Of a DNA stretch of 64,000 nt, positions 3,926 through 63,300 are shown in pieces. Location of the stretch: IMG/VR virus record IMGVR_UViG_2600255157_000003; one strand, written 5' to 3'. The position numbers and the translations under genes were made by a program. The DNA is from an uncultured virus (IMG/VR IMGVR_UViG_2600255157_000003). Lineage: Duplodnaviria; Heunggongvirae; Uroviricota; Caudoviricetes. The notes below the pieces were generated by a model. The model worked only from the letters and a program-made list of their open reading frames with translations. It was not told the origin of the DNA and searched no databases. The stretch's first letter is position 1, and the number at the start of each line of letters is the position of its first letter.

Positions 3926-4274
3926 TCGTCCTATCCTTTCCTTTTACAATTTTCAACTTTCTAAATTCATTTAATATTGCTTTATTGATTTTATTCATTA
4001 TAGTATCATAATTTCCACACTCTATATTATAGAACGGTGCATAGGGCGTAGCATTATTATCTATTACATCAATCTGTATTTTATTTGTATCTATGTATGC
4101 TATGATTCTGCCATGAAGAACCGTAATTTTTTCATGTCTTAATGCAGGGAAATAATATACATATTTTTCTTCTGTCTCATCATGCTTAAATCCCAAATCT
4201 AATAAATGTCTTGTATTATTGACAGATATTATATAATCATTGTCTTGTATGGATTTAACTCTAGCCATAATCAA
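3897..4274 (-). CDS. Hypothetical phage protein
   Basis: 125-aa ORF with AGGAG RBS, operon-like packing. Confidence 0.6.
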   Translation of the reverse strand: MIMARVKSIQDNDYIISVNNTRHLLDLGFKHDETEEKYVYYFPALRHEKITVLHGRIIAYIDTNKIQIDVIDNNATPYAPFYNIECGNYDTIMNKINKAILNEFRKLKIVKGKDRTNENQHKEVN

Positions 4275-4435
4275 CTACTCCTTCTCAGCATTCTTTTTAA
4301 ACTCTCTATAATCACATGGAATACACTGTCCCCAAAAATATGTTTTATCTTTGACACTGCAATATACCTTTACTCTAGCCTTGTCTTCTTCGTTAATTAT
4401 TGAGTGAATGCATTGTTCACATTCACTCGTTATGA

Positions 4436-5071
4436 TCATATTTGCCATAATACTATCTTACCTTCTTGTAATGATTGTTGAACATCTATCAATCTTTGAT
4501 TCTTACTTCCCCTGTATGGGAGCGTTATATCGCGTTGGGATTCTTTATATTGCCCATCCACAAATACATTGCATTGTGCTATGATAGCTTTTCTTAAAGT
4601 ATCATGCATTTTTAAAAAATTATATTCTTCATCCAATATTTCTTCCCATGTGTATCCACTATAAATCCAGATAGTTTTATGCGGACTTGAAAGACGGATT
4701 TCATAGGCATTTGTATTCAATATATTGTGGTTGTTTTGATTGTTTTCATCTATATATCGCGTAGTATTATATCGTTTATTTACCTCAGTTACTAAATCCA
4801 ACACATCACCCAAATTACCTTCAAAGAGCGGATCACCGCCGCTTAGTGTCAGACCTGAAATATAATCTTTATCCAATTCTCTAAACAACTCTTCTTTTGC
4901 CGATTCATCAAACAGGATACCGCTATTAGCATCCCATGTTTGAGGATTTTGGCATCCTTCGCATTTATGAGAACAGCCTGAGAGCCATAAAACGACTCTC
5001 AAACCTCCTCCGTTATTCATATCTGGATAAGTTATGTTGTGATAATTGATATTTACACCACCTTTCTCCAA
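4436..5071 (-). CDS. nrdG: Anaerobic RNR activating radical-SAM enzyme (start may be ATC at 5050)
   Basis: CSHKCEGC (CxxxCxxC), GLTLSGGDPL, RGSKNQR; downstream of nrdD. Confidence 0.93.
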   Translation of the reverse strand: MEKGGVNINYHNITYPDMNNGGGLRVVLWLSGCSHKCEGCQNPQTWDANSGILFDESAKEELFRELDKDYISGLTLSGGDPLFEGNLGDVLDLVTEVNKRYNTTRYIDENNQNNHNILNTNAYEIRLSSPHKTIWIYSGYTWEEILDEEYNFLKMHDTLRKAIIAQCNVFVDGQYKESQRDITLPYRGSKNQRLIDVQQSLQEGKIVLWQI

Positions 5072-28734: not shown

Positions 28735-30000
28735 TTATAGTGGTATATTTACGACTAACGGATGTGAACCTGCACCCACTATCCCATTGTCAAAAACGTT
28801 TGGGAATACTTTTTTCATTATCTGATAACTACCATTTACATCTGCATTTATCTTTTCTCCTTCCTTCGTTACAAAAAGTCCTCTATGCACTCTTCTCGAT
28901 TTATCATAATTTCCTTTTACTGGCTGCTCACCATCAATAAAACTCGTTCCACTTGTATAACTCTCATCGGTTGTCTTAAATATAATCCCCTCTGCTTCAC
29001 ATTTATAAGCCAGTCTTTGAACTATACTCAAATATGGAATACCAACAAATTTCTGATTCACCTTTTTACTCATATTACTTTCTTGTTTCCATCCAGGATT
29101 ATATCCACAGACCAAAGTATCAATATTATTCTCTTTGCAAAAATCAACCACTATTTTTGTAGATTTCTGAATATAATCATCTATTTTATGATTTCTCTTT
29201 ATGGTGAATCTTCTCATCTCATTTGAATAATCTCTGTTATATCTTTTCTTTAGTTCTGATTGTTTATCAGCAATCATTTTGTTATAATACTGATTCACAG
29301 ATTTCAGAGGTTTACCATTTATGATAAAAGGTTTAATTCCGCAATTTGTTGTAATAGTCATAAGATTATCAATTCCTAAATCAATAGATGCTATTCTATC
29401 AGAATTATCTTCTATATCAGGAACATCAATCTCATAAACAACTTCCATTATGTATTCGCCATTTTTAGGTACAAATCGTAACTGAATTAACTTCTTATCT
29501 TCTGCAATCTTTGTCATAAAAGTATCATTCATCACCTTTAATGGCTTCCAACAGAAAAATATATATCTATTTTTTATTTTAAATTTATGATTATCTAATC
29601 CACATTCATATCTACCTTTATCTTTATCAATATATTTTGGTATTTTAGGTCTTCCACAATATTTACTTGGATTTTTACCATAATCTTTTATACTTTTAAA
29701 GAATCCATTCCAAGCTTTATCTAACTTTCTTAAAGTTGCTTGTCCTACATTACTACCAAGTTCTCTATACGGATCAGAGTCCTTACACAAATTGAATAAC
29801 TCGTTATACTTAATCCAATTTGCATTTTCTCTTAACCCTTCTTCTTTTTCTTTGGAAGTCTGTATAAATTCTTGTCTGATTATATAATTACCATAGTTAT
29901 ACATATTTTTAGACTTCCAACATAACTCATCTATAATTGAAAAGAATTTATTGTTTTTCTTTATTCTATGTTGCTCTACTCTTGTTGTTTTTATTTTTAT
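28735..30000 (-). CDS. tnpB: TnpB RNA-guided nuclease, no tnpA; start probably ATA near 29994-30000
   Basis: SKNMYN, IDLGIDNL, GYNPGWKQ, DESYTS, INADVNG. Confidence 0.9.
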   Translation of the reverse strand: MKIKTTRVEQHRIKKNNKFFSIIDELCWKSKNMYNYGNYIIRQEFIQTSKEKEEGLRENANWIKYNELFNLCKDSDPYRELGSNVGQATLRKLDKAWNGFFKSIKDYGKNPSKYCGRPKIPKYIDKDKGRYECGLDNHKFKIKNRYIFFCWKPLKVMNDTFMTKIAEDKKLIQLRFVPKNGEYIMEVVYEIDVPDIEDNSDRIASIDLGIDNLMTITTNCGIKPFIINGKPLKSVNQYYNKMIADKQSELKKRYNRDYSNEMRRFTIKRNHKIDDYIQKSTKIVVDFCKENNIDTLVCGYNPGWKQESNMSKKVNQKFVGIPYLSIVQRLAYKCEAEGIIFKTTDESYTSGTSFIDGEQPVKGNYDKSRRVHRGLFVTKEGEKINADVNGSYQIMKKVFPNVFDNGIVGAGSHPLVVNIPL

Positions 30001-30161
30001 CACTCCTATAAATCTACACTGTTCTAAAACTCTTAAATGCTCCAATGGTATGTATTGTAGGTTTACTACCATATAAATTCACACTGTTTTAAAACCTGAT
30101 CTTAGTTCTACATCAAGCGTATATAGGTTTATTACCTCATAAATCTATACTGTTTCAAAAC
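29995..30161 (-). CRISPR. Degenerate mini CRISPR array: 3 x 36-nt repeats, spacers of 30 and 29 nt
   Basis: Repeats 30126-30161, 30060-30095, 29995-30030 (GTTTTRRAACAGTRTRRATTTAT...); period 66/65. Confidence 0.7.
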
Positions 30162-33858: not shown

Positions 33859-35322
33859 CTACCTCCGCCCATATAATCTTTCACGAATATCTAAAAATGT
33901 ATCTTCTTTGACAAGTTCTCCATTTTCAAATACTGCCTTCAGGAGCGTATTATCACTCATTTCAAGAAGTTCATCTCTACATATAAGTTCTCCATTTTCG
34001 CCAGCATATACTCTACAACATCCTTTATGAGATTTCTTCAACTTACTTGTATCAGTTTTAGGGTCTTTATAAATCATCAGCTTCTTTCCATTAATAACTC
34101 CGTATGTTGCTTTCATAGCAATACCAAAAGTGTCTCTTGTTGCTACAATAAGATTACCATTTTCAACGATTGCTGAGAAACAGAAAGCACCAACACCATA
34201 TGCAATACAATTAGCAGCAAAACCACGTATTTCTAATTCAGACCAAATAATATCTACATTTGATAAAGTACACCCATCCCCATAAATGATACCAATATGC
34301 GGATCAAGCACTTTATATCCCTTAGAGTTCACTGTACCACCAAAAATTTCCCACAATTTTTCTACTGTTTTTACTGAAATATCTACAATATCTCCACTAT
34401 CAGGACGAATCAATAACTTACCATTATGATTCATAACATCATCTTTTACTTGTGGAAGAATGTTATTTACCATATTCCAATAATCATAGGTATCTGAAAC
34501 CATACTGAATGATGTATTTGGATAAAGTTCATTCAAAAGACGCTTTACGAATGTTGCCTCATCTCCATCAATGGAATAATTTGCTCCCATAACCGAATGT
34601 TCTGTAGAAACTGCTCCAATGCCCAATCTATTATTTTTACAATCAGCACTATAATACTTATCAATATAGTTGATTGCCGGAATTGTCGATGTCTTATCAA
34701 AAGAAATCAGCCAAGATGCAGAACATCTTGTAGCTTCATCCATACATGACATTCCCCGCATACCAAAATCTGCACAAGCCATAGATGAAGGAATATTTTC
34801 TACAGTCTTTTCATACCACTTATCCGCAATCTGCCTATACATATATCCAATAGTTGCATGACAACATGGTTTCCAAAGTTCTACCTGTAAAATACATTCA
34901 ATCCACTGTACAAGCCACGCAAAACCATCATGTGTATTTGTAATCTCAATACAAGGAACGCCCATAGGCACTAAAGTCCCTTCTGGCAATGCTCTAATTT
35001 GTAGTGGTAAATATCCAAGACTGTGAAGATTAATGATCTTATCCCAATCATAATTCTCTTTTCCGATTTGAATATCCATCGAATCTGTATACAACTCTAA
35101 TACTTCATCTTTTGTCAATGCAAAGAAATTATCATTAAAATACTCAATCAGATATTCTTTAATAAATGCTTGAAGTCCAAAGAATACCATTTTATTCTGA
35201 GTCTTCAACATGGATTTTCTTGGAACCCAATATGAAACCAATTTAGTAAGCCCTGTAGGATACATTCTGTCGTGACACTGTTTATATGTATCAGAAAGCA
35301 ATAATGCCATTGTATTACTCAT
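33859..35322 (-). CDS. NAMPT/NAPRT-fold phosphoribosyltransferase (Namat-like)
   Basis: SDTYK, DFGMRG, STEHS, VSDTYD, IRPDSG, IYGDG. Confidence 0.88.
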   Translation of the reverse strand: MSNTMALLLSDTYKQCHDRMYPTGLTKLVSYWVPRKSMLKTQNKMVFFGLQAFIKEYLIEYFNDNFFALTKDEVLELYTDSMDIQIGKENYDWDKIINLHSLGYLPLQIRALPEGTLVPMGVPCIEITNTHDGFAWLVQWIECILQVELWKPCCHATIGYMYRQIADKWYEKTVENIPSSMACADFGMRGMSCMDEATRCSASWLISFDKTSTIPAINYIDKYYSADCKNNRLGIGAVSTEHSVMGANYSIDGDEATFVKRLLNELYPNTSFSMVSDTYDYWNMVNNILPQVKDDVMNHNGKLLIRPDSGDIVDISVKTVEKLWEIFGGTVNSKGYKVLDPHIGIIYGDGCTLSNVDIIWSELEIRGFAANCIAYGVGAFCFSAIVENGNLIVATRDTFGIAMKATYGVINGKKLMIYKDPKTDTSKLKKSHKGCCRVYAGENGELICRDELLEMSDNTLLKAVFENGELVKEDTFLDIRERLYGRR

Positions 35323-35328
35323 TTTTAT

Positions 35329-36153
35329 TTAAACCTCCATAACTGTAATTTTTTCATGTTCACCTGTGAAAATGCTATTTGTTGTAAACAGCCTCTCTAC
35401 TGTATTATTCTCCAAAGACTTAATCAAAGTGCCCTTCTCCATATTAAGAACCGAATTTTCAGTGTGCGTTGCAAAAGCATAGATTTTATCTACACCATTT
35501 TCTTTCAAAGTATTTGCACTATAATAAAGGGAGCCACCATATGCAATAATGTCATCAATCATAAGAACTGTTTTGCCAGACAAGTTAATACCATTAGACT
35601 TTATATCTAAACCAAGAATCTTTCCTGTATCCCAATCTCTTTTCTTTTCACCATAACAGTATTTGTACTTTGGGAACATATCAGAATATCGTTTTGCTGC
35701 TCCCTCGTCTGGGAAATATAAAATCAAATTCGTATTATCTTTCTCAATCTGCTTAATTACTTCATTAATATAAATCTTTGGAGTTTCTATAATCACATTA
35801 TCAATTAGTGCTGCTCCTACATTACTATGTACATCTAAAATCGTTACTAAATCGAATTTAAGCCAATTAATAACATCTGCAAAACTTTTTAATGTAAATA
35901 CTTCATCTCTTTCGTGAATCCGATCCATTCTTGCATTTGGAAGATAATTCATTTTCAATCTCACTGATTTCGTATAAGGATTATTTCTTAAATGTCTTGT
36001 AATATAAATCAGTGTTGATAACTCTTCTTCCTTTTCGTATCTCCAATCAATGCTGTAATCTCCAGATGCCCTCCACATAGATTCTACTAATAACTTCTGT
36101 GTTCCATCTGGAAAATGATCAATATTAATTACTTCATCATTTACTTTAATCAT
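35329..36153 (-). CDS. PRPP-synthetase-like pyrophosphokinase (Adps-like)
   Basis: FPDG, YLPNARMDR, DVHS, PDEGA, IDDIIAYGGS, ATH. Confidence 0.88.
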   Translation of the reverse strand: MIKVNDEVINIDHFPDGTQKLLVESMWRASGDYSIDWRYEKEEELSTLIYITRHLRNNPYTKSVRLKMNYLPNARMDRIHERDEVFTLKSFADVINWLKFDLVTILDVHSNVGAALIDNVIIETPKIYINEVIKQIEKDNTNLILYFPDEGAAKRYSDMFPKYKYCYGEKKRDWDTGKILGLDIKSNGINLSGKTVLMIDDIIAYGGSLYYSANTLKENGVDKIYAFATHTENSVLNMEKGTLIKSLENNTVERLFTTNSIFTGEHEKITVMEV

Positions 36154-43320: not shown

Positions 43321-44346
43321 TCATTTATTTATTTCTTTTTTCTTCTTGTCCATCCCCTTATAAAATTCTTTGTATTTTCTTGTGTACTCGTAACTATCGC
43401 CAAAAATATTATTTACAGCTACAAATAATTTTGGTTCATACTTCTCTACAGCAATCAATTCTTCTTCAAAATCTCTTCCAAAAGGACAGCAAGCGCAACC
43501 AGTACGTTTGAATCCGTATTCACTATAACACTTACTATGTATTATATTATAATGTTCATCATATTCTATTTTATCTATATCCTTATACCAAAATAACGGT
43601 CTGTAATTATCATATCCGCTTCCATTTTTGTCAAAGCAACTCTTATAAGCAGTTGATCTAACTCCTCCCTCTGCTTTTCTTACACCCACTATTTGTAAGT
43701 CATAATCATTTTCACTTAATAATTTATGGGCAACATCTTTTTTAGCATATTTGCAACATAAATTTGATATTTGAAAAGTTGGTGGATTTTTAATCAGAAA
43801 TTCTTTTAACCATTTATTTTGTTTAATATTAAATGCAGGTGATTTTTTCTTATTACACCACCATTCTAATGCCGATTTACATTTTGGATATTCTGAATAT
43901 AATTCATCAAAATCTCTATCTTCAAACTTGAAATGATATTTCTGTAATCGTCTTATCATCTCACTGACATGTTTTGAAATAAAAGGTTGACCATATTGTT
44001 TACAAGTCAACGGAATTGGTTTTATAGCTTTATATTCTTTAATCTCTACTTCATATTTATCTTCAAGATATCTTAAATGGTCTTTTGTTGCTTGATACTC
44101 CAAACCAGTATCAAACCATACATACTCAATTTTATTGTCTTTGTCACATTTTGTACAAATATCCAACATTACATCACTATCTGATCCCCCAGATATTGAG
44201 CAAACTATTTTCTTATATTGGGTACTGTTTATTTTTGACCATGCTCTTACTAAATTATCACCTATTGTCTGGTTCTGCGGAGCATTACTAATTAATTCCA
44301 TCAGATCAGCAGGTTTTGAATTTATATTTTTATCTTTTCCTTGCAA
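43321..44346 (-). CDS. PAPS-reductase-family PP-loop protein
   Basis: SISGGSDS, DTGLE, CCKYAKK, GVRKAEG, RTGCACCP. Confidence 0.82.
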   Translation of the reverse strand: MQGKDKNINSKPADLMELISNAPQNQTIGDNLVRAWSKINSTQYKKIVCSISGGSDSDVMLDICTKCDKDNKIEYVWFDTGLEYQATKDHLRYLEDKYEVEIKEYKAIKPIPLTCKQYGQPFISKHVSEMIRRLQKYHFKFEDRDFDELYSEYPKCKSALEWWCNKKKSPAFNIKQNKWLKEFLIKNPPTFQISNLCCKYAKKDVAHKLLSENDYDLQIVGVRKAEGGVRSTAYKSCFDKNGSGYDNYRPLFWYKDIDKIEYDEHYNIIHSKCYSEYGFKRTGCACCPFGRDFEEELIAVEKYEPKLFVAVNNIFGDSYEYTRKYKEFYKGMDKKKKEINK

Positions 44347-44629
44347 TTACTGTATTTACAAGGTATGCGCATACATATTACCTAGAATTACTTGTATATC
44401 TCCTTTCATAGTCTACTGAATTGCTGATTTTTTATTGACATTTGCAACTGCCAATAAAAATATAATTTCTTCTGCTTACTCTATTTCATCTTCTATACAG
44501 CGGATAATTTTACCGATGAAATTGGCTTTCTATTGGGTATCACACCCATTTTATGTAGACAACATTGTGTACATAAGGCATTAGAAGTACCTCTATCCAA
44601 TAGTCCTTAAAAGACATTTTGGAATACTT

Positions 44630-45517
44630 TTATTTATTTTCTTTCACACATTCCATAATTCTATTTTTGCCAGTATTAAATATCTCTTCATCATTCTCAA
44701 TACAGATAATCTTCCTGCCTGTCCTAATGGCAGCCACACCAGTTGTCATACTACCAGCCGTTGAATCAAGCACAGTATCACCCTCATTTGTATAGGTTTT
44801 AATTATTTCTTCTACTAAGGCTACTGGCTTTTGAGTTGGAGTTAATGCACACTTTTGGGTATCTTTGGCGAATAGCCAAACTGACTTAGGAAATCTCTCT
44901 GTACTGTCATATGTATGATTTTTGATTTCGTTGTAATTTGTTGACTGCTTACTATTTCTTTTGTGGGACGCTGTACTAACTTTTCTGATATGTCCGTTTG
45001 TTTTCTGAGGATTATACGTTGGTTGTTTCTTATAGAAAACACACATATCCTCATGATATCTCATTGGCATTCTATTAGCATTCTGGAACCCTGTAGGTTG
45101 TGTTTTCTCCCAAATGAGATTGTATTTCCACATCTCACGGTTGCTCTCCATAAGATCAGCGGTAAACATACCGTTTGCAAATAGAATAATTGCGCCATTA
45201 TCTTTAATGATTCTTTTATATTGAGTCCATAACCCCATAGACTTATTTTCTTCAAAATACGAAAGTGCACCATTATAATCAGTTTCTCCTTGCTTATAAC
45301 ACCACAAAAGAAAATCATCTTTATAAAATACCTTTGGTTTCTTTCTCACTTCTAAAGTTATATAGTCATTAAATGGAATTACTATATCCCAAGCATTCCT
45401 GGCGGTCTGCCCAAACGGAAGATCTGTGATAATTGCATCTATAGATCTATCAGGAATATCATCCATTAGTTTTAGACAATCACCTTGCCATAATTCATAA
45501 TTATTATTCTCAAATAT
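44630..45517 (-). CDS. N6A/N4C DNA methyltransferase; proposed ATA start at 45517
   Basis: GDCLKLM (upstream of the tracked ATG 45466), TDLPF, PTQKP, DSTAGS. Confidence 0.85.
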   Translation of the reverse strand: MFENNNYELWQGDCLKLMDDIPDRSIDAIITDLPFGQTARNAWDIVIPFNDYITLEVRKKPKVFYKDDFLLWCYKQGETDYNGALSYFEENKSMGLWTQYKRIIKDNGAIILFANGMFTADLMESNREMWKYNLIWEKTQPTGFQNANRMPMRYHEDMCVFYKKQPTYNPQKTNGHIRKVSTASHKRNSKQSTNYNEIKNHTYDSTERFPKSVWLFAKDTQKCALTPTQKPVALVEEIIKTYTNEGDTVLDSTAGSMTTGVAAIRTGRKIICIENDEEIFNTGKNRIMECVKENK

Positions 45518-45585
45518 TTTCTTTCCCAGAAAGGCATGATCACCTCACGGCTGCAGCACCTTTGTTCCTTTCTGTGTTATTTCTC

Positions 45586-46080
45586 TTAAACTTCCTTAAT
45601 TTTATCTGCCAACATATTTATCAATCTTGCACCATGCGGATATAACGCATTTTCCATTACTATGTAATCTAATTGCATCATTCCTCTACCTTGATTTTCT
45701 TCAATAATATCTGCTAATATATTGAAAAAATCTGCTTGTTGCGCTGAATCCATATTCCAGAACTCTTCAGCTAATTCCTGTGGATTCATTTCTATATTAA
45801 CTTCTCTTGTTACTATTTCTTTTCGCCTCCTCTGGATGAAACAGATTTTTCATTCAGTATATCCAAACTCAAACATAATTGATTTTATTTGATCCTCATT
45901 ATAAGCATACTGTTTTGGATATCTATACTCTGCTATTTCATAAGCCATAGATTCTATAATTTCTTTCATCTCTTCTTTACAATTATCATATCCTTCCTGA
46001 TATCCTAAATCTTTTCCTGATTCATACATAATAGTTTCATTACTATCAATCATTTTTTTATCCTTTTCGCACTTGACCAC
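45586..46080 (-). CDS. Two small hypothetical ORFs (45586-45789, 45850-46080)
   Basis: Short acidic ORFs. Confidence 0.45.
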
Positions 46081-46291
46081 CTATCAGAATGCTCAAGGCA
46101 CAAACTTGAACATTCCTCATAAGAAAGGAGGTCAAAATGAAAACAACGAAATTTATCTGATTGAGTGATTGAACACTCTGGTAGATAGTCAAGTGTATGT
46201 TTATATTTCTTCTTTTCAATTACTGCTTTTTCTAATTACATGATTATCACCTATTTATAAAAATTTAATAGAGCTTATGTTTGCTTTCCAA

Positions 46292-46320
46292 TTGACATTT
46301 GGTACAAATTGGTATATAGT
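46292..46320 (+). promoter_or_regulatory. Promoter of the retron locus
   Basis: TTGACA-N17-TATAGT. Confidence 0.8.
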
Positions 46321-46326
46321 TATAGA

Positions 46327-46827
46327 CATCAGTGTTATATAGCAGATTTACTCCCGTTTGGTTCGTTATTTTATGTAACGAATGGATGCTCAATAATTTA
46401 TGAGCATTTTTTTAAGAGGGACAGGCTCTGTACCACCCCTCTACACCCCAACAGCACCAAGCGTCATATATTCGTTTACATACTTCTTTTAAAGAAGTAT
46501 AGTAAAGTGCTTCTAGGGAGAGGTAATTTTGCTGGTGTAAGATAGATATACGCTATAACCATATCTCTTTGTTATTTGAGGATTAGGGAGACTCCATTAT
46601 GGAGCCAATATAATAACAAGGAGGTGAAGCTCATGAAAAAGGCGGATAAGTTTGAAATCACCATTGACATTCACAAAAAGGTTCGTATTACTAAAAAAAT
46701 GGTGATCATTTTTGTATCATTAATCGTTCTACTCACACTGATTATGTCTAACTGTAGTTCTGAAACATTAGCTGATATTATTCGCTTATTAATCAGCATT
46801 GTTTCTAACTAACACCAGCATTAATTA
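46327..46827 (+). ncRNA. Retron-associated structured RNA (msr/msd candidate)
   Basis: Arm pair 46341-55/46516-33 followed by G46356; hairpins 46362-82, 46386-407, 46415-42, 46475-506, 46755-811; second arm pair 46530-38/46812-20. Confidence 0.7.
46633..46812 (+). CDS. 59-aa single-TM peptide; candidate retron effector
   Basis: AAGGAGGTG RBS; basic N-terminus then MVIIFVSLIVLLTLIM. Confidence 0.7.
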   Translation: MKKADKFEITIDIHKKVRITKKMVIIFVSLIVLLTLIMSNCSSETLADIIRLLISIVSN

Positions 46828-46844
46828 GAATATTGAGGTTAATT

Positions 46845-47816
46845 ATGATAGATCCAGTAAAATCCAATTTGTTTAAATTATCTTCAAAGAAATATTTAAT
46901 GACACTATTAAATGTACCAACAAAAGAATATTTAAATCAAAACTTTACCGCAAAACAGATTAAGCCATATATACAAGCAAATCCAAAACCTCGCTTAATT
47001 GAAGTCCCTTCGGATTCTCTTAAAAAAATTCAGAAAAACATAAAATGTGAATTAAATAAAATAGAAGTTCCTTCCAATGTATTCTCTGGTATAAAAGGAA
47101 AATCTTATGTTGATAATGCTGTTATACACCAAAACTGTAATTTTCTTTTCAAAATAGACTTAACAGCATTTTTTCCATGCATAACTCGTGAAACAGTGTA
47201 TAAATTTTTTAAAGTTGATTTAAAAACATCTTCTGATATAGCCAATATTCTCACTAATTTTGTTACTATCGACTTAACTTTATGTGATATTCAGGAACCA
47301 GAACCTATTGAACAATTCCTTTTATCCAAGGGAATAAAAACTACAAATCATTTAATTTCTGGTTCTCCTGCAAGTCAAATCCTATCTTATTTAGCGAATC
47401 ATAATATGTTTGATGAACTACAAAATTTTTGTGATAAAAATGATATAATTATGTCTATATATGTAGATGATATTACTTTTTCTTCACAGCACGAAATTTC
47501 ACATAAGCACAAAGAAATAATTTATAATATTATTTTCAAATATTTATATAGACTTTCAAGATCAAAAGTAAAATACTACACAAGTATTTATCCAAAATCT
47601 GTTACTGGAGCTATCATTTCTCCTAATGGGAACCTCAGTATCCCTAACTCATTAAGCTATAAAGTAATAAATGAATTGCGTAATTATAAGAATAATCCAA
47701 ATGACGAACACTCTCAAAAGAGACTTCAGGGTTTAATAGTTGTTGCACAACAAACTGAACCAACAAAATTCAGTAATATTTATAATCATGTTCGCAATGC
47801 CACTATTAAAGCATAA
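46845..47816 (+). CDS. Retron-type reverse transcriptase
   Basis: NAVIH (NAxxH), IDLTAFF, SGSPAS, YVDD, VTG. Confidence 0.88.
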   Translation: MIDPVKSNLFKLSSKKYLMTLLNVPTKEYLNQNFTAKQIKPYIQANPKPRLIEVPSDSLKKIQKNIKCELNKIEVPSNVFSGIKGKSYVDNAVIHQNCNFLFKIDLTAFFPCITRETVYKFFKVDLKTSSDIANILTNFVTIDLTLCDIQEPEPIEQFLLSKGIKTTNHLISGSPASQILSYLANHNMFDELQNFCDKNDIIMSIYVDDITFSSQHEISHKHKEIIYNIIFKYLYRLSRSKVKYYTSIYPKSVTGAIISPNGNLSIPNSLSYKVINELRNYKNNPNDEHSQKRLQGLIVVAQQTEPTKFSNIYNHVRNATIKA

Positions 47817-48240
47817 TTTTTAATCCACTAAAATCTGAATCCTTGAAAGTTTTATTCTTAAATTGCACCAAACACAATCTATTTTTATACATTCCAAGAA
47901 TTGATTGTGTAATACTATTTCTCTTTTCTAGTACATTCAAATACAGCTTTAGATAAAATGGTTTATCATTCTCTTTACACCACTCAATCAATTCATACAC
48001 TTCTTTGTTTTCTGTCATAGAATTAGTATCTTCATTTATTTCTTTTTCAGGTGCTTCTTTTTCTACTAACTCAAAATACTTTTCAAATTCGTTATAAGAC
48101 ATACACCCAAGATGACAGCCACCAAATTTGAAACTAATAACACCATCTTCTGATATATCTGTTACTTCACAAACTTCTCCAATGTGATCAAATACTCCCA
48201 TTGGCTTAATCAATCTAATCTCATTCCCTTTTGTAATCAT
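47806..48240 (-). CDS. Hypothetical protein
   Basis: 144-aa ORF; 3' end overlaps the RT stop. Confidence 0.5.
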   Translation of the reverse strand: MITKGNEIRLIKPMGVFDHIGEVCEVTDISEDGVISFKFGGCHLGCMSYNEFEKYFELVEKEAPEKEINEDTNSMTENKEVYELIEWCKENDKPFYLKLYLNVLEKRNSITQSILGMYKNRLCLVQFKNKTFKDSDFSGLKIML

Positions 48241-49358
48241 GCTACTTTCCTTTCTTTATCTGCAAATTTTTTATTCCATTTATCAATAGCCTCTTGATCT
48301 TCTGATGTTACAGGATCATTAAATCTTCTTCTAGCTTGTACAATGTGATTGTTTCGTACTTCGATAGTGACAAGACTCTCTTTGGGGTTAGATTTCTTAC
48401 GCAAAAACATAATATGGCATTCTCCATCAATAACTTTATCTATGTAAGAAGCTACACAATTGTTTTGTGCTACTGCCTCATCCTTAATATCCTGGGTGCT
48501 ATCAGGATAAATAAACTGATAATCTCCAAATGCACATTCTAAATTCTTATCTATTCTTGTCTTAAATATCTCCTCAGAAAATTCTTTCTTCAGTCTGTTA
48601 TAATTTCTACATGCAATCTTATGTGTAGTAAGAAAATTCCGTGGATATTTATCAAATTTAGGACTGATCGTATTCATCATTCTCGCATAATCCACCAATT
48701 CACCAAGCAAATGATTCATATCCTCTATTGCCTCAAAAGTTTTTAGAGTATCAATATATATCAACAATGCTTTTGGGTTATATCCGTATTCTTCAGTCAA
48801 CTTGTTAAAATAGGAATAGTAATTACTAATTCCATCGGCATAATCATAATTTTCTCTGCTTAAAATTTTATTAATGTCTTCATCTGTTAAAGATATATAA
48901 TCAAGCTGATACGCCAAATAATGAGCATCAGGATTTCTTTTCCAATAATCACAAAATCTATCTGATATTTTTATTTGTCTATCTCTAGCAATTTTGATTA
49001 AAGATTTTGGAATGTCATTAATTGTTTTTGTGAAATTTCTGTCTACAATACTATCGAATCCAGCCGAAAAAATCTGTTCAAACTTTGAATACTGTGGAAC
49101 TTTTGAAAGAATTGTGCCTACATTTGATATGTAATTTGGGTATCTATTCTGCACAAATTTTAGGAATTTAGCATATTTCTCATCAGTACAATACTCAATT
49201 ATTTGATTCATTGTTATACCTGATAATTGGCTCTGTAATCCTTTTACTGGTTTACCTTTGATTCCTATACAAGTTTTTGTTGCAAAATCATATTTTACAG
49301 TTCTTCCATCTTCAAAATCAAATATTAGGAACTGCTTTTCTTTGTAAACTCTCGTTAT
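48237..49358 (-). CDS. PcfJ-like domain protein; non-AUG start near 49355-49358
   Basis: EAVAQNNCVASY, FLRK, LVTIEV, VQARRRFN; frame open 49 codons above ATG 49211 up to a GAGGTG RBS. Confidence 0.75.
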   Translation of the reverse strand: MTRVYKEKQFLIFDFEDGRTVKYDFATKTCIGIKGKPVKGLQSQLSGITMNQIIEYCTDEKYAKFLKFVQNRYPNYISNVGTILSKVPQYSKFEQIFSAGFDSIVDRNFTKTINDIPKSLIKIARDRQIKISDRFCDYWKRNPDAHYLAYQLDYISLTDEDINKILSRENYDYADGISNYYSYFNKLTEEYGYNPKALLIYIDTLKTFEAIEDMNHLLGELVDYARMMNTISPKFDKYPRNFLTTHKIACRNYNRLKKEFSEEIFKTRIDKNLECAFGDYQFIYPDSTQDIKDEAVAQNNCVASYIDKVIDGECHIMFLRKKSNPKESLVTIEVRNNHIVQARRRFNDPVTSEDQEAIDKWNKKFADKERKVA

Positions 49359-49394
49359 CTATCACCTCTTTTCTGCCTTGAAATCTCGATTTCA

Positions 49395-49646
49395 TCACTC
49401 TACTTCGATTAACACTTCTCCTTCTTCATCAAGTAGCTTTTCACCTTTTTCAAGATAAACTATTCTATCTGTCATTGATTCTGAAAAACTCATTGCCTGT
49501 AAAAAATATTTAAACTCATCTAACAGCCAATCAATTCTTCCTATTTCTTCTTCATCTCCAGTGAAAGTTTTCTTTAGTGAAACAGATTCACCATTCTCGT
49601 TTGTAAAAGAGAATGATATTTTACCAATTATTTCTTTGCTATTCAT
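49395..49646 (-). CDS. Small acidic hypothetical protein
   Basis: 83-aa ORF with RBS. Confidence 0.55.
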   Translation of the reverse strand: MNSKEIIGKISFSFTNENGESVSLKKTFTGDEEEIGRIDWLLDEFKYFLQAMSFSESMTDRIVYLEKGEKLLDEEGEVLIEVE

Positions 49647-49647
49647 T

Positions 49648-50538
49648 TTAATTTACCTCACATCTCAAAATCAGTTTATCCATATTAAATCCTGCCGCTC
49701 CTCTGTGACCTCCACCACCATATTTCTTTGCAATATTAGAAACATCCACAGTTTTTGAATACATACTATATGTCCATGTACCATTCCTTCCATTGAATGA
49801 AAATGGCATTAAAATATCATATGAATCGTCATCCACAGATTTAAACCAATCACTACCAGCAAGTCCAACATTCATTGCATACACTTTATATCCCTCAAAT
49901 TCTGTTTCAAAACCTTTGGACTCACAGTATTCTTTTGCAAAACTATCACGATACTTGATGATTACTTTTCCTTCTTCAATATATTTATTCTCCGCATCAT
50001 CATCTAAAAGGTTATACCAAATCTCGTTATCTGGGCTTTTATCGTATGCATCAAATCCCATATGAAAATATCTTGTATCATCACCATATTCAAAAGCCCA
50101 TACATCATAATCAGCGATATATTTTGTAAACATAGGTGCATCTTTTGTCATAGAAATATCAAATTTTTTCGGATTGCCACCTCCTCTTTCAGTCATATGA
50201 TGTAACCAACAATATGTAAGCATACAACCGGCTATCCCGTCATATCTAATTCCACGAATAGGAATTTCAAAATCCGTATATCTTTCTATTGCTGATTTAT
50301 GATGATCAATCCAGGTTACATCTTTTGTTATTTCTAACAGTTTTCTCATTTCGTCTGGCATAATTGAATAGTCAACAATATATACCTGCTCATTAGGATT
50401 TATCTTGTCAAAAGAAAATTCCATTCCATAATTGATAGGAATAAATTCTGACTCATATCCATCATATACTCCTGCACTTAAATACACCCAAAATGCAGCA
50501 CATTTCCCATCATCATCTACATGATAAAAACACTTCAA
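49648..50538 (-). CDS. DHH/DHHA1 phosphoesterase
   Basis: HVDDDG, IVD, IDHH, DYD, GGGGHRGAAG. Confidence 0.88.
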   Translation of the reverse strand: MKCFYHVDDDGKCAAFWVYLSAGVYDGYESEFIPINYGMEFSFDKINPNEQVYIVDYSIMPDEMRKLLEITKDVTWIDHHKSAIERYTDFEIPIRGIRYDGIAGCMLTYCWLHHMTERGGGNPKKFDISMTKDAPMFTKYIADYDVWAFEYGDDTRYFHMGFDAYDKSPDNEIWYNLLDDDAENKYIEEGKVIIKYRDSFAKEYCESKGFETEFEGYKVYAMNVGLAGSDWFKSVDDDSYDILMPFSFNGRNGTWTYSMYSKTVDVSNIAKKYGGGGHRGAAGFNMDKLILRCEVN

Positions 50539-50553
50539 ATTATCAAACCCTCC

Positions 50554-51921
50554 TTAAAATTTTATCCAACCATCTCTAACACCTGTCATCCAATAAACCA
50601 AATCATCTTTATTATTTTCTAATTCTCCATCTATAACACGTTTCAGTATCTCATTCAACCAATACCCAATATCTTTACCTTCTTTGAGTTTCATCACCTC
50701 TTTTACATCGTTACCATTAACCGCTAAATCCTTTAATGAGAAACAAGATTTCTCAGATAATATTTCTTCAAGAATATTTTCTATATTATTTACTTTCTCT
50801 ATCCGAGATTCTTCATAATCCGGTTTCTGCCCTTTAATATCTGCTTTTCTGATCTCCAGCAACCGTCTAAATTGTTTTTCACCAATTTTATTGAGCCATC
50901 TCTTAACGTACTTATTTCCTACCTCAAAAGTCGCATCATGATAATAAACAAGTTCTACTACATTATTTCTCGTTTCATTATCAAACCTAAGACGTTTCAT
51001 AATAGAGTCTGTAATTTCAGCACTTACCTTTCCGTGACCTTTAAAATGTCTAATACCATCTTCCCCATCTTGGTAGGAATGTGGTTTGCCGAAATCATGA
51101 AAGAAAACAGCAAATCTAACCACTAAATCATCAGACTCACATTTCTCTATTGCATGGACTGTATGATCGAATACATCATATGCATGATATGGATTATTTT
51201 GTTGGAAACCTATCAAGTCTTTTAATTCTGGGATAAATAAGGAAAATACGTTTGGATATAAAACTAATTCAACACAGAATTGTTCAGAAGCAACTATTTT
51301 ACAAAATTCACTATTAATTCTCTCAATTGAGATGTTCTTTAGTCTGTCATATTGTCGTTCTATTTCAAACATTGTTTCTGGGAGTCCTGCAAAACCTAGT
51401 TGTGCTTCAAATCTTATTGCTCTCAATATCCTCAAAGCGTCTTCGTTGAACCTGTCTTCTGCGGAGCCAACGCATCGAATCTTTTTATATTTGATATCCT
51501 CCATGCCATTAAACGGATCAATTAAACCAGTTTTAGGATTGTATGCCATAGCATTAATCGTAAAATCTCTTCTCCGTAAATCTTCAACCAGATTCTTTGT
51601 AAATGTTACATTGTCAGGTCTACGATTATCAGAATAATCTCCATCAATCCGATAAGTTGTAACTTCAAATGGTTCTTTATTTATCAGAATCGTTACTGTA
51701 CCGTGTTGCAAACCAGTAGGAATAATTTCTTCATCAGGAAACGCTTTTAATATCTCATCTGGTGTGGCAGATGTGCAAATATCATAGTCGTGAGGTTTTC
51801 TTCCCAATACGCTATCTCTTACACATCCACCCACCATATATGCCTCATGTCCGCATTTCTCTAATTCCTGTATGATGTAATTTACTGGTGCCGGAACTTC
51901 TACATTAATTCTTTTCATCAA
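50554..51921 (-). CDS. CCA-adding tRNA nucleotidyltransferase with HD domain
   Basis: VGGCVRD, DYDI, EVTTYR, RRDFTINAMA, EDALRILR, HAYDV.DHT, HDFGK. Confidence 0.9.
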   Translation of the reverse strand: MMKRINVEVPAPVNYIIQELEKCGHEAYMVGGCVRDSVLGRKPHDYDICTSATPDEILKAFPDEEIIPTGLQHGTVTILINKEPFEVTTYRIDGDYSDNRRPDNVTFTKNLVEDLRRRDFTINAMAYNPKTGLIDPFNGMEDIKYKKIRCVGSAEDRFNEDALRILRAIRFEAQLGFAGLPETMFEIERQYDRLKNISIERINSEFCKIVASEQFCVELVLYPNVFSLFIPELKDLIGFQQNNPYHAYDVFDHTVHAIEKCESDDLVVRFAVFFHDFGKPHSYQDGEDGIRHFKGHGKVSAEITDSIMKRLRFDNETRNNVVELVYYHDATFEVGNKYVKRWLNKIGEKQFRRLLEIRKADIKGQKPDYEESRIEKVNNIENILEEILSEKSCFSLKDLAVNGNDVKEVMKLKEGKDIGYWLNEILKRVIDGELENNKDDLVYWMTGVRDGWIKF

Positions 51922-60800: not shown

Positions 60801-61838
60801 TCAATTACTAAATAATTCTTCTACATATTTATCCATATCATATCCCAATTTCACACAATTCCCATGGGATATATGATTTTTCCAAGCATTATAACTTTCA
60901 TAGAACTTTTCTTCACTTATCTTTCCATTCCTTACCAACCTGACCATTTTCTTAAATTTCTTTTTAGCTGCACGCTTGTTTTCGTTCTTCAGCTTACGGA
61001 TCACCTTGCCATCAGAAGTCACATATGTGTGAAATCCACAAAATTTAATTCCATTTTTAAATGGAATAATCTGTGTCTTACCATTCAATTCGAGTCCTAA
61101 TGTATACACAAATTTATAAATAGCACTTAAACACCACTTAGCATATTCCTTTCCCTGAACTATCAAATAGAAATCATCCATATACCTGCCATAATATTTA
61201 ACTCCGAGTTCCCCAGTGATGAAGTTATCTAAACCTGATAAATATGTAAGCGCATATACCTGGCTGACTTGATTACCAAGCGGAAGTCCTAATCCATCTG
61301 TGCTATCAATAAACTTTTCACATAGCCAATACACATCTTTATCTTCCACAAAATAACTTACAATATCTTTTAAAACATCATGATCTATATTGTAAAAAAA
61401 TTTACTGATATCTGCTTTTATAATCCAACAGTTATATCCATATTTACAATATGCCAGATACATATGCGCCTTTAAACAATCCAAACCATATAATGTACCT
61501 TTTCCTATTTGTCCTGCATAATTTGTCTGTATGAATTCTTTTTTCAGTATTGGAATTAAAACATTATCACATAAAGAATGCTGTACTATTTTATCTACAA
61601 ATGAACACGATTTAATAATTCTCTCTTTAGGTTCATATATTGTAAATTCATTATATTTTGATACATTATATGTCTTTGTCTCTAATCTTCTTTTTATTTG
61701 ATGAATTCCATCCAAAGCCATCACTTGAAATTTTTGACTACTTTTAGAAAATCCTTTACCTGATTTGGACTTTAAATATGCTTGATACAAATTACCGAAA
61801 TCTACTACTTTTTCAAAATCTGTTTTATCTTCTATCAT
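60801..61838 (-). CDS. DGR reverse transcriptase
   Basis: GKGT, KADISKFF, GLPLGNQVSQ, RYMDDF. Confidence 0.95.
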   Translation of the reverse strand: MIEDKTDFEKVVDFGNLYQAYLKSKSGKGFSKSSQKFQVMALDGIHQIKRRLETKTYNVSKYNEFTIYEPKERIIKSCSFVDKIVQHSLCDNVLIPILKKEFIQTNYAGQIGKGTLYGLDCLKAHMYLAYCKYGYNCWIIKADISKFFYNIDHDVLKDIVSYFVEDKDVYWLCEKFIDSTDGLGLPLGNQVSQVYALTYLSGLDNFITGELGVKYYGRYMDDFYLIVQGKEYAKWCLSAIYKFVYTLGLELNGKTQIIPFKNGIKFCGFHTYVTSDGKVIRKLKNENKRAAKKKFKKMVRLVRNGKISEEKFYESYNAWKNHISHGNCVKLGYDMDKYVEELFSN

Positions 61839-61958
61839 AATATTTTGTTCCTTTATATTTATCCTGACTTTTTTCTAATCAGGAAAGGTTGCCTATTCTT
61901 TTGATATCGGGACTCTAATTTCAGTGTTTCTCTTACTTTCTCTCGTCTTCCGATCCAG

Positions 61959-62037
61959 AACGGACGCACACCTTTGTCATAATCACACCTGTTGTAGTTC
62001 ACATTACCATCAGAGTAGACGTACTGAACATAGTGGG
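61959..62037 (-). repeat. DGR template repeat (TR), 79 bp
   Basis: Identical to 62552-62630 except at 10 positions, all adenines of the TR coding strand. Confidence 0.95.
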
Positions 62038-62059
62038 TCATACAATAGGCAACCTAAAA

Positions 62060-62428
62060 TTATCTTTCTTTATCTTTTGAACGCCAAGCAATACTCATAT
62101 ATTTCACATCATTTATTTGTTTCTGCCAATATCCTACTGTATCACTTCCTATTAAATTCAATTTCATAGAAAGTTCTACATAACAAGATAACTTATCACA
62201 ACATGAAATCGCTTTTGTTTGCAGTTCTTGACGTTCTGATTTTGAAGTATCCAATTTCAGTCTATTTGCATCAAGCAAATATTCATATATATCCATACAG
62301 CGATTTTGGATGCGTTTCACCAATGTTAAATGCTTAACTGGATACCTCTTTCGGTTTGATGTAATTGTCATAGTATATTCCATAAGATTTATTGCTTTTA
62401 CAATAACATCCAGTTTCGCTTCGCTCAC
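62060..62428 (-). CDS. avd: DGR accessory variability determinant
   Basis: 122-aa helical basic protein between target gene and TR. Confidence 0.85.
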   Translation of the reverse strand: MSEAKLDVIVKAINLMEYTMTITSNRKRYPVKHLTLVKRIQNRCMDIYEYLLDANRLKLDTSKSERQELQTKAISCCDKLSCYVELSMKLNLIGSDTVGYWQKQINDVKYMSIAWRSKDKER

Positions 62429-62468
62429 TGGCTACTCCGCTCCTTTCAGTCGCTCATAGGCTGTTGAC

Positions 62469-62490
62469 GGCAAGGGCTTACGCCCTCGCC
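62469..62490 (-). other. DGR cis-acting hairpin downstream of VR
   Basis: GGCGAGGGC-GTAA-GCCCTTGCC just after the target stop. Confidence 0.75.
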
Positions 62491-62493
62491 TAG

Positions 62494-63300
62494 TTACTGG
62501 CTATCCGTTACATTGTCGCAAGATCCAAAGATATCAGATTGGAGGATGAAAAACGGACGCACACCCCTGCCATAAACACACCTGCCGTAGCTCACATCAC
62601 CATCAGAGCAGACGTACTGAACATAGCGGGAATCTCCTCTCTTTGGTGTTTGATTAGGATTTGCAAGCCAATACAAGTCTTCAATCAATGGAATATTCTC
62701 CCCAAACTTCATAAGTAACTGAATATTTGGAATCGCTAAAATATCTCCTTCAACTGTGCCATAGTCCTTAAAACCATCCATAGATGTTAGATCCAGAGAA
62801 ATGGGAACCAATTTATCTCCAAATTCTTTCTTTAACTCTGCAGCTAACTCACTATTGACAAGATAATTGCGCACATAGGAATCTGCATAATTATTTGTCT
62901 TACCAAACTCTGATTTTTTAAGAATTCCATTCAGAAAATAATATGTAAGGTTCCCATCAGTAACACTTGTCCAATAATGTCCACAAATGAATTTGAAGTT
63001 CTTCTTCCAATCTTCCATATATTTTTCAACGGCATTTCTAAATTCCTGCACGTATCTCTCTGGATCTTTTTCATACCAGTCTGGTACAATATCTTGATCA
63101 ACCTTATATCTCCAGTCTTTTACATCACTCATTCTATCATTATTTTTCGGAATCAACTCAGCTCTCACAAATGTCTTTGTTGCATTCATATGAGTATCTG
63201 CAATTCCAAGGCTTTCTAACAAATCTGAATGACTTTCGTTACCTTTTGGTGTTAATACAACCTTGTTTTTTAAAATAATTCCACTCTTAAACTGACACAT
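62494..63300 (-). CDS. DGR target protein with C-terminal CLec-like variable domain
   Basis: YWL...GVRP ending; contains the VR. Confidence 0.9.
   Translation of the reverse strand: MCQFKSGIILKNKVVLTPKGNESHSDLLESLGIADTHMNATKTFVRAELIPKNNDRMSDVKDWRYKVDQDIVPDWYEKDPERYVQEFRNAVEKYMEDWKKNFKFICGHYWTSVTDGNLTYYFLNGILKKSEFGKTNNYADSYVRNYLVNSELAAELKKEFGDKLVPISLDLTSMDGFKDYGTVEGDILAIPNIQLLMKFGENIPLIEDLYWLANPNQTPKRGDSRYVQYVCSDGDVSYGRCVYGRGVRPFFILQSDIFGSCDNVTDSQ
62552..62630 (-). repeat. DGR variable region (VR)
   Basis: 9 A>G and 1 A>T relative to TR; 3' flank TTTTTCATC vs TTCTGGATC in TR (IMH/IMH*-like). Confidence 0.95.

Follow-up and report, generated by a model that had tools for sequence, protein, structure and literature searches.

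The element at positions 46292-47816 (plus strand) of a 64,000-nt stretch of DNA from an uncultured virus of the Caudoviricetes (IMG/VR record IMGVR_UViG_2600255157_000003; the whole stretch is called the window below) is best explained as a variant type VI retron cassette, carried by a prophage and lacking a helix-turn-helix (HTH) gene. We place the probability of this reading at roughly 0.78. The cassette comprises a promoter, about 500 nt of structured RNA that includes the gene for a 59-aa small protein (SP), and the gene for a 323-aa reverse transcriptase (RT); about 300 nt without a long open reading frame (ORF) lie between the promoter and the SP ORF. The reading is carried by direct observations, namely the family of the RT, the covarying architecture of the RNA, the conservation of the SP gene, the absence of the HTH gene and the cover of the locus by RNA libraries. 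What is new relative to the known systems is an HTH-less, phage-borne variant of the type VI retron in a large Clostridia clade.

Two studied type VI retrons serve as references. The characterised operon order is noncoding RNA (ncRNA)-SP-HTH-RT (bioRxiv 10.64898/2026.04.27.721009). In Retron-Vpa2 of Vibrio parahaemolyticus, reverse transcription was shown experimentally to gate SP translation, and the HTH protein is essential and represses reverse transcription, an R7D mutant being toxic (Zhang et al., bioRxiv 10.1101/2025.10.22.683967). These authors found a conserved 7-nt repeat with one copy in msd and the other in the riboregulator loop, and proposed that the reverse-transcribed repeat at the 5′ end of the RT-made single-stranded DNA (ssDNA), the msDNA, docks on the loop copy and frees the ribosome-binding site (RBS). 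A hydrophobic C-terminal helix was required for SP toxicity in the same work (bioRxiv 10.1101/2025.10.22.683967). In Retron-Sen3, SP and ssDNA are made constitutively, and the HTH protein is an antitoxin and RT partner (Garcia-Rodriguez et al., bioRxiv 10.64898/2026.04.27.721009).

Results

Family of the reverse transcriptase

The best PADLOC profile of the RT was RT_VI (PDLC02952; 2.8e-67, 224.9 bits), the runner-up reaching 121.6 bits, and among the best 25 PADLOC matches listed for this protein all were retron RT models. A search for homologues gave 528 at E <= 1e-10 among 1362 candidates, and RT_VI was matched by each of the 30 that were sampled, in agreement with the retron identity proposed in an earlier note written from the sequence alone. 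With the same profile, the HTH-bearing phage retrons of Burkholderia phage KS5 and P2_2H1 scored 260 and 351 bits, respectively, and the clostridial locus L008 scored 255 bits. Pfam RVT_1 matched the RT at 8.5e-14. The motifs NAVIH (47115-47129), YVDD (47460-47471) and VTG (47601-47609) were read from the translation of 46845-47816, as the earlier note had listed them; NAxxH, YxDD and VTG are motifs that we take to be typical of retron RTs. On profile scores the protein is thus assigned to the type VI retron RTs, which are reportedly a group in retron RT clade 3 of the classification of Mestre et al. 2020.

Covariation of the structured RNA

The region 46320-46850 folded with a minimum free energy (MFE) of -133.5 kcal/mol, compared with -109.5 +/- 6.1 kcal/mol for 100 shuffles (z = -3.97), none of which equalled it; the interval 46341-46830 gave z = -4.10. 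Scanning of 45000-49000 against Rfam at E <= 1 returned three chance-level matches below gathering scores (mir-1 twice and snoZ162) and no curated family. The comparative analysis used an alignment of 58 distinct Clostridia-type RNAs, each taken from the conserved 5′ CAGT up to the beginning of the RT; a consensus was obtained by RNAalifold, and pairs were counted. The consensus fold had 121 pairs. In total, 90.4% of its cells were paired, compared with 34-52% when the alignment was slid by 1-3 columns; 74 of the 121 pairs were changed on both sides (35-49 when slid), and the covariation score was 0.299 (0.06-0.12 when slid). None of 500 shuffles reached the observed values, and the slid control is the fairer of the two because sequence kinship inflates the shuffle control. 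The dense hairpins over about 500 nt described in the earlier note are therefore borne out by both folding energy and a covarying consensus, and the RNA region is conserved beside homologous RTs across the 58 RNAs. The layout is that of the published type VI hybrid RNA, and it can be followed arm by arm (Table 1).

In the first, msr-msd-like arm, the a1/a2 helix (helix 2) was paired in 90.6% of cells with 6/10 pairs changed on both sides, CTCCC:GGGAG in the window becoming GACTTC:GAAGTC in most relatives. An arm pair 46341-55/46516-33 had been drawn in the earlier note; it is present and covaries in relatives, a1 being set here at 46343-55. In the single-sequence MFE fold of the window, a1 pairs instead with a nearer G-rich stretch (~46416-46431); this pairing was rejected because a1/a2 covaries. 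Just 3′ of a1, the TGG at 46359-46361 was identical in all 58 RNAs. The branching G proposed earlier, G46356, did not stand as a conserved base: its position held G in 45/58 RNAs, A in 10, T in 2 and C in 1. Synthesis of msDNA in retrons is primed from the 2′-OH of a conserved msr guanosine, for which G46356, G46360 and G46361 are the candidates here. The hairpins P1 (helix 3; 95.3% paired, 5/7 pairs changed on both sides) and P2 (helix 4; 89.8% paired, 9/10 pairs changed on both sides) follow, P2 having three distinct stem sequences in the six closest relatives. The next part, 46410-46515, was the least conserved and length-variable part of the alignment (columns ~100-318), and the long hairpin 46475-46506 that the earlier note had marked within it was recovered in single-sequence folds. 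By analogy with Retron-Vpa2 and Retron-Sen3, this variable part would serve as the template of the RT.

A second, long-range helix ties the two sides of the SP gene together. IR1/IR2 (helix 5), which are inverted repeats (IRs), were paired in 97.9% of cells, and for 7/10 pairs at least one sequence had both sides changed; whole-arm compensated versions were present in three loci (L015, L045 and L056) and one compensated pair in a fourth (L005). The existence of this pair, 46530-38/46812-20 around the SP ORF, agrees with the earlier note. The note had further supposed that the two arm pairs overlap and are partly exclusive, forming a competing switch, and this part is not upheld: positions 46530-33 covary with IR2 and not with the 5′ AGCA, so that the two arm helices abut at a junction rather than compete, and the consensus fold accommodates a1/a2 and IR1/IR2 simultaneously.

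Within the region closed by IR1/IR2, the RBS of the SP gene is buried. The anti-Shine-Dalgarno strand pairs with the Shine-Dalgarno (SD) region in helix 8 (98.0% paired, with compensated pairs), which corresponds to the pairing 46567-76/46612-21 of the earlier note, and the arm includes a covarying inner hairpin. In the thermodynamic model, the unpaired probability of the SD was <= 0.03 in 19/20 RNAs.

This RBS arm, the 'riboregulator', holds in its internal loop one copy of a direct repeat whose other copy overlaps the start of a2. The two copies are an exact 8-nt match in the window. Across the alignment they were alike over at least 7 nt in 55/58 RNAs and over at least 8 nt in 50/58, compared with at least 7 nt in just 3% of control windows. 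The 55 RNAs had 18 different common repeat strings, variants such as GGGAAGTC, GGGAGA, GGGATGTC, GGAGGTC and GGGGAGTT being present in both copies. The copies thus change in concert as the msDNA-docking model predicts, and pairing of a1 with either copy predicts the same equally. In one locus (L037), both copies carry the same change and a1 compensates imperfectly, which leans slightly to the msDNA-docking reading.

Selection on structure also extends into and across the SP coding sequence, where several helices were found. The 5′ leader CAGTGT pairs with ACACTG (46735-40) inside the SP gene; this helix of 8 pairs was spotted by eye and then tested, and it was paired in 97.6% of cells in the 58 RNAs, compared with 7-53% when slid, with 4 pairs changed on both sides in 34 cells, with the caveat that the RNA-library contigs described below start at 46340/46341, 3′ of the leader. 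Helix 6 joins a strand upstream of the SP gene to its coding sequence (97.2% paired, 5/8 pairs changed on both sides). The long stem that the earlier note had placed at the 3′ end of the SP ORF (46755-46811) was resolved into helices 15-18. At the downstream end, pairing of the RT RBS with bases immediately 5′ of a1 (helix 1) is tentatively suggested: the helix was 85.5% paired with few compensations, and the window itself pairs at 4/6 positions.

A conserved gene for a small hydrophobic protein

The SP has a basic N-terminus, a single hydrophobic helix and a C-terminal amphipathic helix. In an alignment of 35 SPs, a basic N-terminus (MKKADKP) was followed by a variable Asn-rich segment, a hydrophobic stretch and a conserved C-terminal (C)CPELLADFVRWII-like helix, the SP of the window being the shortest version with 59 aa. 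A structure model placed helices at residues 21-40 and 43-58. Homologues were found in 51 protein clusters with 62-100% identity. The SP had no family match in Pfam, PHROG or PADLOC, and a look-up in the ESM Atlas gave best scores of 0.87, 0.81 and 0.81 to unnamed clusters, below a meaningful level.

Pattern scans collected 74 loci, of which 67 are in species-representative genomes and 7 in viral contigs; most come from metagenome-assembled genomes (MAGs) and isolates of Oscillospiraceae and other Clostridia. A small hydrophobic ORF with an SD lay immediately upstream of the RT in 72/74 loci, the exceptions being L065, in which the RT is frameshifted, and L069, which is a fragment. Over 75 sources, the window included, ORFs related to the SP (type 'MKKADKP...CCPELLADFVRWII') occupied the same position in 64, and other small hydrophobic ORFs did so in 10 more: a second type in 7, on contigs labelled Bacilli/Tenericutes, a third type in 2 and a divergent one in 1; the remaining source had none. 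The 59-aa transmembrane ORF that the earlier note saw in the structured RNA is accordingly a conserved gene with its own SD. Among 58 relatives, the SP start codon was GTG in 46 and the RT start codon was TTG in 37; the window has ATG for both. The features of the SP fit a membrane-active peptide and agree with the reported need for a hydrophobic C-terminal helix in SP toxicity, and it is putatively toxic.

Absence of an HTH gene

Between the SP stop (46812) and the beginning of the RT (46845) lie 32 nt in the window, a distance of 33 nt when counted from the last base of the stop codon to the first base of the RT gene, and 30-38 nt in 57/58 RNAs. The gene for a Cro/C1-type HTH protein (cluster 2_1), which in type VI retrons typically stands between SP and RT, upstream of the RT or overlapping it, was not found in the window. 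Clustering of 1926 ORFs (at least 50 aa, within 3 kb, 75 sources) yielded no recurrent HTH; RT and SP were the sole recurrent real genes, with recombinase-like ORFs in 12 sources and ParB-like ORFs in 9. No Pfam HTH domain was found in the flanking small ORFs. The PADLOC HTH_VI profile gave 67 matches genome-wide and none within the 64-kb window, this profile being unspecific, with matches in 13/14 control genomes too. Using tblastn with three HTH queries, no match was obtained in the window, and the only match among Clostridia-type loci was a downstream one in L019; upstream matches were obtained in L061 and L067, 2/7 of the second-type loci. The HTH domain is not fused to the RT, since the RTs (320-325 aa) are no longer than canonical ones. 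These results agree with the earlier note, which had remarked on the lack of an HTH gene despite the type VI likeness. Its statement that there is no separate large effector likewise stands: both cassette neighbours are on the opposite strand and neither has a PADLOC match.

In L061 (2047-2286) and L067 (2066-2305), an HTH_3 ORF (Pfam 1.3e-07; weak HTH_VI match, 2.5e-08) is encoded on the strand of the RT, about 700 nt upstream of it and before the non-coding region; the SP of these loci is of another kind (MVSKxIKFVE...), and the RT is preceded by a gap of about 75 nt. In L019, the HTH-like ORF at 4274-4573 (tblastn against the KS5 HTH, 2.5e-06) has the same orientation as the RT and follows it by about 350 nt, at the end of the contig.

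As for published retrons, an HTH gene is reported for ~78% of 158 type VI entries in one preprint (bioRxiv 10.64898/2026.04.27.721009), and HTH is therefore typical and not universal in type VI. A metagenome survey counts 23/93 type VI RTs in Bacillota and HTH_3 neighbours in 21/93; with the ~78% figure, it follows that HTH-less entries exist in catalogues. Neither of the two preprints (bioRxiv 10.1101/2025.10.22.683967 and 10.64898/2026.04.27.721009) mentions Firmicutes, Bacillota or Clostridia. In the parts of the literature covered by the search, supplementary tables lying outside it, neither an HTH-less SP-RT cassette of type VI nor its RNA in Bacillota was found to be described.

RNA-library cover of the cassette

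The stretch is contained in 18 public runs, 11 of which are recorded as RNA. Four mouse-gut metatranscriptome runs from three studies were compared over 44000-50000. All of the long contigs lay on the cassette (46340-48138, 46341-47946, 46419-47976, 46384-47507 and 47496-47895), and outside 46340-48138 only two short low-depth pieces were present, near 49021-49393. RNA-library contigs span ncRNA, SP and RT in one piece, which as contigs cannot prove a single transcript. Lack of contig cover is likewise no evidence that the flanking phage genes are silent; contigs give no strand, level or true ends, and their depth does not allow ncRNA and RT to be compared. Two contigs, one from each of two studies, have their first base at 46340 and 46341, where the 5′ arm of the earlier note begins, and one of them runs into 22 letters that resemble a sequencing adapter. 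These contig ends hint weakly at a defined RNA end, which would lie about 13 nt downstream from the promoter-predicted start. A processed 5′ end at 46340/46341 could strip the covarying CAGTGT (46330-35) from the abundant RNA.

Prophage setting, promoter and mobility of the cassette

The window corresponds to C12:187055-251054 of a 6.96-Mb bacterial genome in 40 contigs, and the source is a gut Clostridia genome carrying the cassette in a prophage. A profile search of the contigs of this genome found one RT_VI-type gene in total. The window is phage DNA, encoding a Pol III alpha-like polymerase, a DnaB-like helicase, an NAD-dependent ligase and NrdD, along with several methyltransferases; an integrase gene lies at 2231-3424, and the G+C content is higher in the first 2 kb. 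A 159-kb viral contig carries a relative whose RT is 93% identical and whose flanks are syntenic. The phage gene content and this relative make the label 'prophage' in the earlier note correct.

The orientation of the cassette opposes its neighbours, almost all other long ORFs of the window being on the minus strand. The consensus promoter reported earlier (TTGACA-17-TATAGT) matches the consensus at 11/12 positions and ranks at the top of 11 promoter-like sites in 45500-48500. A TATAAT-like hexamer is seen a few bases 5′ of the conserved CAGT in the displayed rows of the locus alignment, an uncounted impression. Relatives at ~64% RT identity match the window only over ~46309-47694 and differ in their flanks, indicating that the unit from promoter to RT moves as a cassette; it was found with unrelated flanks in many bacterial MAG contigs.

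Table 1. Features of the cassette and of a second retroelement in the window (positions in the window).
Feature	Position	Strand	Remarks
Promoter	46292-46320	+	-35 TTGACA (46292-97), 17-nt spacer, -10 TATAGT (46315-20)
5′ leader CAGTGT	46330-46335	+	pairs with ACACTG (46735-40) within SP coding sequence
a1 arm (CAGATTTACTCCC)	46343-46355	+	pairs with 46516-46531 (a2)
TGG just 3′ of a1	46359-46361	+	T46359, G46360, G46361 invariant in the alignment
Hairpin P1 of msr-like part	46361-46383	+	helix 3; also in single-sequence fold
Hairpin P2 (core ATGCTCA / TGAGCAT), then U-run	46384-46409	+	helix 4
Variable msd-like region, candidate RT template	46410-46515	+	includes hairpin 46475-46506
Direct repeat copy 1 (TAGGGAGA)	46514-46521	+	overlaps a2 start
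a2 arm	46516-46531	+	helix 2; per-sequence complementarity to a1
IR1 (TGCTGGTGT)	46530-46538	+	5′ arm of long-range helix around SP gene
Strand pairing with SP coding sequence 46744-46750	46543-46549	+	helix 6
Anti-SD strand (TCTCTTTGTTATT)	46567-46579	+	pairs with 46611-46623 (helix 8)
Direct repeat copy 2 (TAGGGAGA)	46584-46591	+	internal loop of RBS arm ('riboregulator')
SP SD (AAGGAGGTGA)	46616-46625	+	SD-like core before start in 72/74 loci; paired in consensus
SP gene, 59 aa	46633-46812	+	ATG 46633, stop 46810-46812
3′ stems of SP coding region	46755-46811	+	helices 15-18
IR2 (ACACCAGCA)	46812-46820	+	3′ arm; overlaps final base of SP stop codon
RT RBS TTGAGG	46833-46838	+	helix 1; tentatively, in part paired with bases immediately 5′ of a1
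Retron RT, 323 aa	46845-47816	+	ATG start; PADLOC RT_VI, Pfam RVT_1, PHROG 2825
RT of diversity-generating retroelement (DGR)	60801-61838	minus	PHROG 1423 at 8e-107, Pfam RVT_1
DGR template repeat, 86 nt	61952-62037	minus	
122-aa ORF in accessory-gene position of DGR	62060-62428	minus	
DGR variable repeat	62545-62630		85% identical to template; inside 3′ part of 268-aa gene (62494-63300)

Other elements of the same prophage

A transposase-like ORF (28735-30072, minus; PHROG 506 at 1.2e-41) lies amid phage replication genes and may be an insertion sequence within the prophage. Adjacent genes for nicotinamide phosphoribosyltransferase (NAMPT) and ribose-phosphate pyrophosphokinase (PRPP synthetase) were found at 33859-36153 (minus), and a gene for a CCA-adding tRNA nucleotidyltransferase at 50554-51921 (minus). 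Phages have been reported to deploy such genes against NAD-depleting and tRNA-targeting defences. The prophage also carries a DGR at 60801-63300 (minus), 13 kb from the cassette. Mismatches between its repeats, judged by eye, were mostly at template T on the plus strand (A on the coding strand), the adenine-specific pattern expected of a DGR.

Discussion

Comparison with known type VI systems

The cassette resembles Retron-Vpa2 in its type VI RT profile, in arms that radiate from a central junction (three in Vpa2), in an SP RBS sequestered in a stem, in inverted repeats that tie the 3′ end to the first arm, in a direct repeat common to the end of msd and the riboregulator loop, and in a small SP with a hydrophobic C-terminal part. 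It differs in that no HTH gene lies between SP and RT, that it resides in a Clostridia prophage and not in a proteobacterium, and that its SP, which has no family match, is unrelated as far as compared. Repeat copy 1 overlaps a2 here, whereas it lies in the msd loop in Retron-Vpa2. Retron-Vpa2 was studied by experiment, whereas the present cassette is known from sequence and RNA-library contigs.

With the Retron-Sen3/cl2075 lineage the cassette shares a conserved ncRNA upstream of the SP and an IR1-IR2 stem with compensatory substitutions that flanks the SP. Selection for structure within the SP coding sequence, pairing of the RBS of the next gene with 5′ sequences and a variable internal stem-loop as candidate template are further points of likeness to Retron-Sen3. 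Unlike Retron-Sen3, in which the order is SP-HTH-RT, the cassette has no HTH, and its 5′ end pairs with the SP coding sequence. The P2-like proteobacterial phage retrons (KS5 gp44/gp45 and Peduovirus P2_2H1) are likewise phage-borne and share the RT profile at 26-32% RT identity, and P2_2H1 also has a small ORF upstream; in both, unlike here, an HTH gene overlaps the RT start (KS5 HTH: HTH_VI 7.5e-35, Pfam HTH_3 1e-11; the P2_2H1 HTH match is weak, HTH_3 0.0084). In type I toxin-antitoxin systems such as hok/sok, translation of a small hydrophobic toxin is blocked by the fold of its mRNA, including long-range pairing between the 5′ and 3′ ends. The cassette differs from these in coupling such a fold to an RT and an msr-msd-like domain, and no antisense RNA gene was identified.

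Proposed mechanism and its weak points

In the preferred reading, the cassette's own promoter makes a single structured hybrid RNA, with the RT gene behind it. This RNA consists of the a1/a2-closed msr-msd-like arm, the riboregulator arm, the SP coding sequence, which is folded and tied back to the 5′ region, and the IR1/IR2 closing helix. In a resting lysogen, as in Retron-Vpa2, hybrid RNA and some RT would be made and the SP would stay untranslated with its SD buried. An incoming phage of another kind would then, again after Retron-Vpa2, let msDNA accumulate, and either the msDNA 5′ end or an a1 strand freed by consumption of the template could dock on the loop repeat and open the arm. The SP would then be made and would damage the membrane, so that the infected cell stops growing and the lysogen population is protected. 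Since there is no HTH repressor or antitoxin, the brakes on the SP and on reverse transcription would have to lie in the RNA fold. The weak start codons of relatives may add restraint. The earlier note had also proposed that reverse transcription or an RNA switch gates translation of the peptide. Of this, gating by reverse transcription may be retained by analogy, the mechanism having been shown for Retron-Vpa2 and the sequestered RBS and direct repeat being present here; the competing-arm switch falls away. Abortive-infection defence, and with it the role in superinfection defence that the earlier note thought likely, is suggested by analogy with Retron-Vpa2, Eco12 and Retron-Sen3.

Several points weigh against this picture. 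Formation of msDNA, toxicity of the SP, translational gating and phage defence at this locus are all read across from relatives, profile scores are the sole basis of the type VI assignment of the RT, and the SP model is of modest confidence (mean predicted local distance difference test, pLDDT, 65.7). An HTH-less version may work differently, because HTH is essential in both studied type VI retrons. Repeat copy 1, through its overlap with a2, enters the DNA only if priming begins 3′ of it. When msd or msd plus a2 was forced unpaired in 20 of the 58 RNAs, the SD stayed buried, its mean unpaired probability being 0.025 throughout the three conditions; the negative is weak because the model excludes pseudoknots. 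When the complementary DNA (cDNA) predicted from the variable region was tested against the RBS arm (RNAduplex, 60 mononucleotide shuffles per RNA), no extra complementarity was found (median z +0.68; 0/58 below -2), in a test that is blind to an 8-nt docking site because long inputs yield long spurious duplexes. With these in-silico tests of SD opening and cDNA complementarity negative, opening of the arm is the weakest step of the mechanism. A toggle in which freed a1 opens the SD was considered and found unsupported, the SD being equally paired under forced-unpaired msd and msd plus a2.

Alternative explanations

The same result, that blocking msd or a2 in silico left the SD closed, would suit a cassette in which the SP is constitutive and is neutralised post-translationally by the RT or by a host or prophage factor, with reverse transcription uncoupled from toxin release. 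Such an arrangement has a precedent in Retron-Sen3, a type VI retron that makes SP and ssDNA constitutively under protein-level control (bioRxiv 10.64898/2026.04.27.721009). We regard it as improbable for this locus, since no recurrent antitoxin candidate was found beside the cassette in 75 sources, and the SD helix (98.0% paired), the paired SD in 19/20 RNAs and the GTG start of the SP in 46/58 relatives point to translational restraint.

A cassette that serves the phage's own cycle, either through a holin-like or lysis-timing peptide or through an RT product directed against host defences or rival prophages, appears more improbable still. The SP is indeed a small single-pass hydrophobic peptide, the prophage is large with several auxiliary genes, and it is a viral contig of 159 kb that holds the syntenic relative with 93% RT identity. 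However, the cassette has unrelated flanks in many contigs of bacterial MAGs, opposes the neighbouring phage genes under its own promoter and is covered by RNA-library contigs from three studies, and its closest characterised relatives are defence systems.

That the locus is not a retron at all, and that an RT of the group II intron, DGR or Abi/UG class follows an ordinary 5′ untranslated region, is hardly credible: Pfam gives just the generic RVT_1 and a second RT, that of the DGR, lies 13 kb away, but the best 25 PADLOC matches listed are all retron RTs with RT_VI leading by ~100 bits, NAxxH and VTG are present, the a1/a2, IR1/IR2 and direct-repeat layout of type VI hybrid RNAs covaries, and the DGR comes with a template repeat and a variable repeat of its own in another place.

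Implications

The HTH-less type VI retron stays the preferred reading. Within it, a bolder version can be put forward tentatively, although we think it somewhat unlikely: a type VI retron free of protein regulators, in which the hybrid RNA alone checks both toxin and RT through the buried SP RBS, the weak start codons and the partly paired RT RBS, and in which docking of the msDNA 5′ end or of freed a1 on the repeat is the only step that depends on a trigger. If this were true, proteobacterial type VI retrons would have added their HTH later, and the ancestral mechanism in its minimal form would be a membrane toxin whose translation is gated by cDNA, which a prophage here employs against rival phages.

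The finding brings the phages and prophages of gut Clostridia into the range of type VI retrons, and a compact, self-contained cDNA-responsive riboregulator could interest builders of retron tools. It also bears on how type VI retrons are controlled, where the studied systems conflict: the HTH of Vpa2 represses reverse transcription, whereas the HTH of Sen3 is an antitoxin that holds a constitutive toxin. In the widespread natural lineage described here, the HTH is missing while hybrid RNA, buried RBS and co-evolving repeat are all retained, so that it can be asked directly which of the parts suffice. Should the ~1.5-kb two-gene cassette defend its host and stay non-toxic, RNA-level gating would suffice, and this natural minimal version can thus separate the two competing models of type VI retron control.

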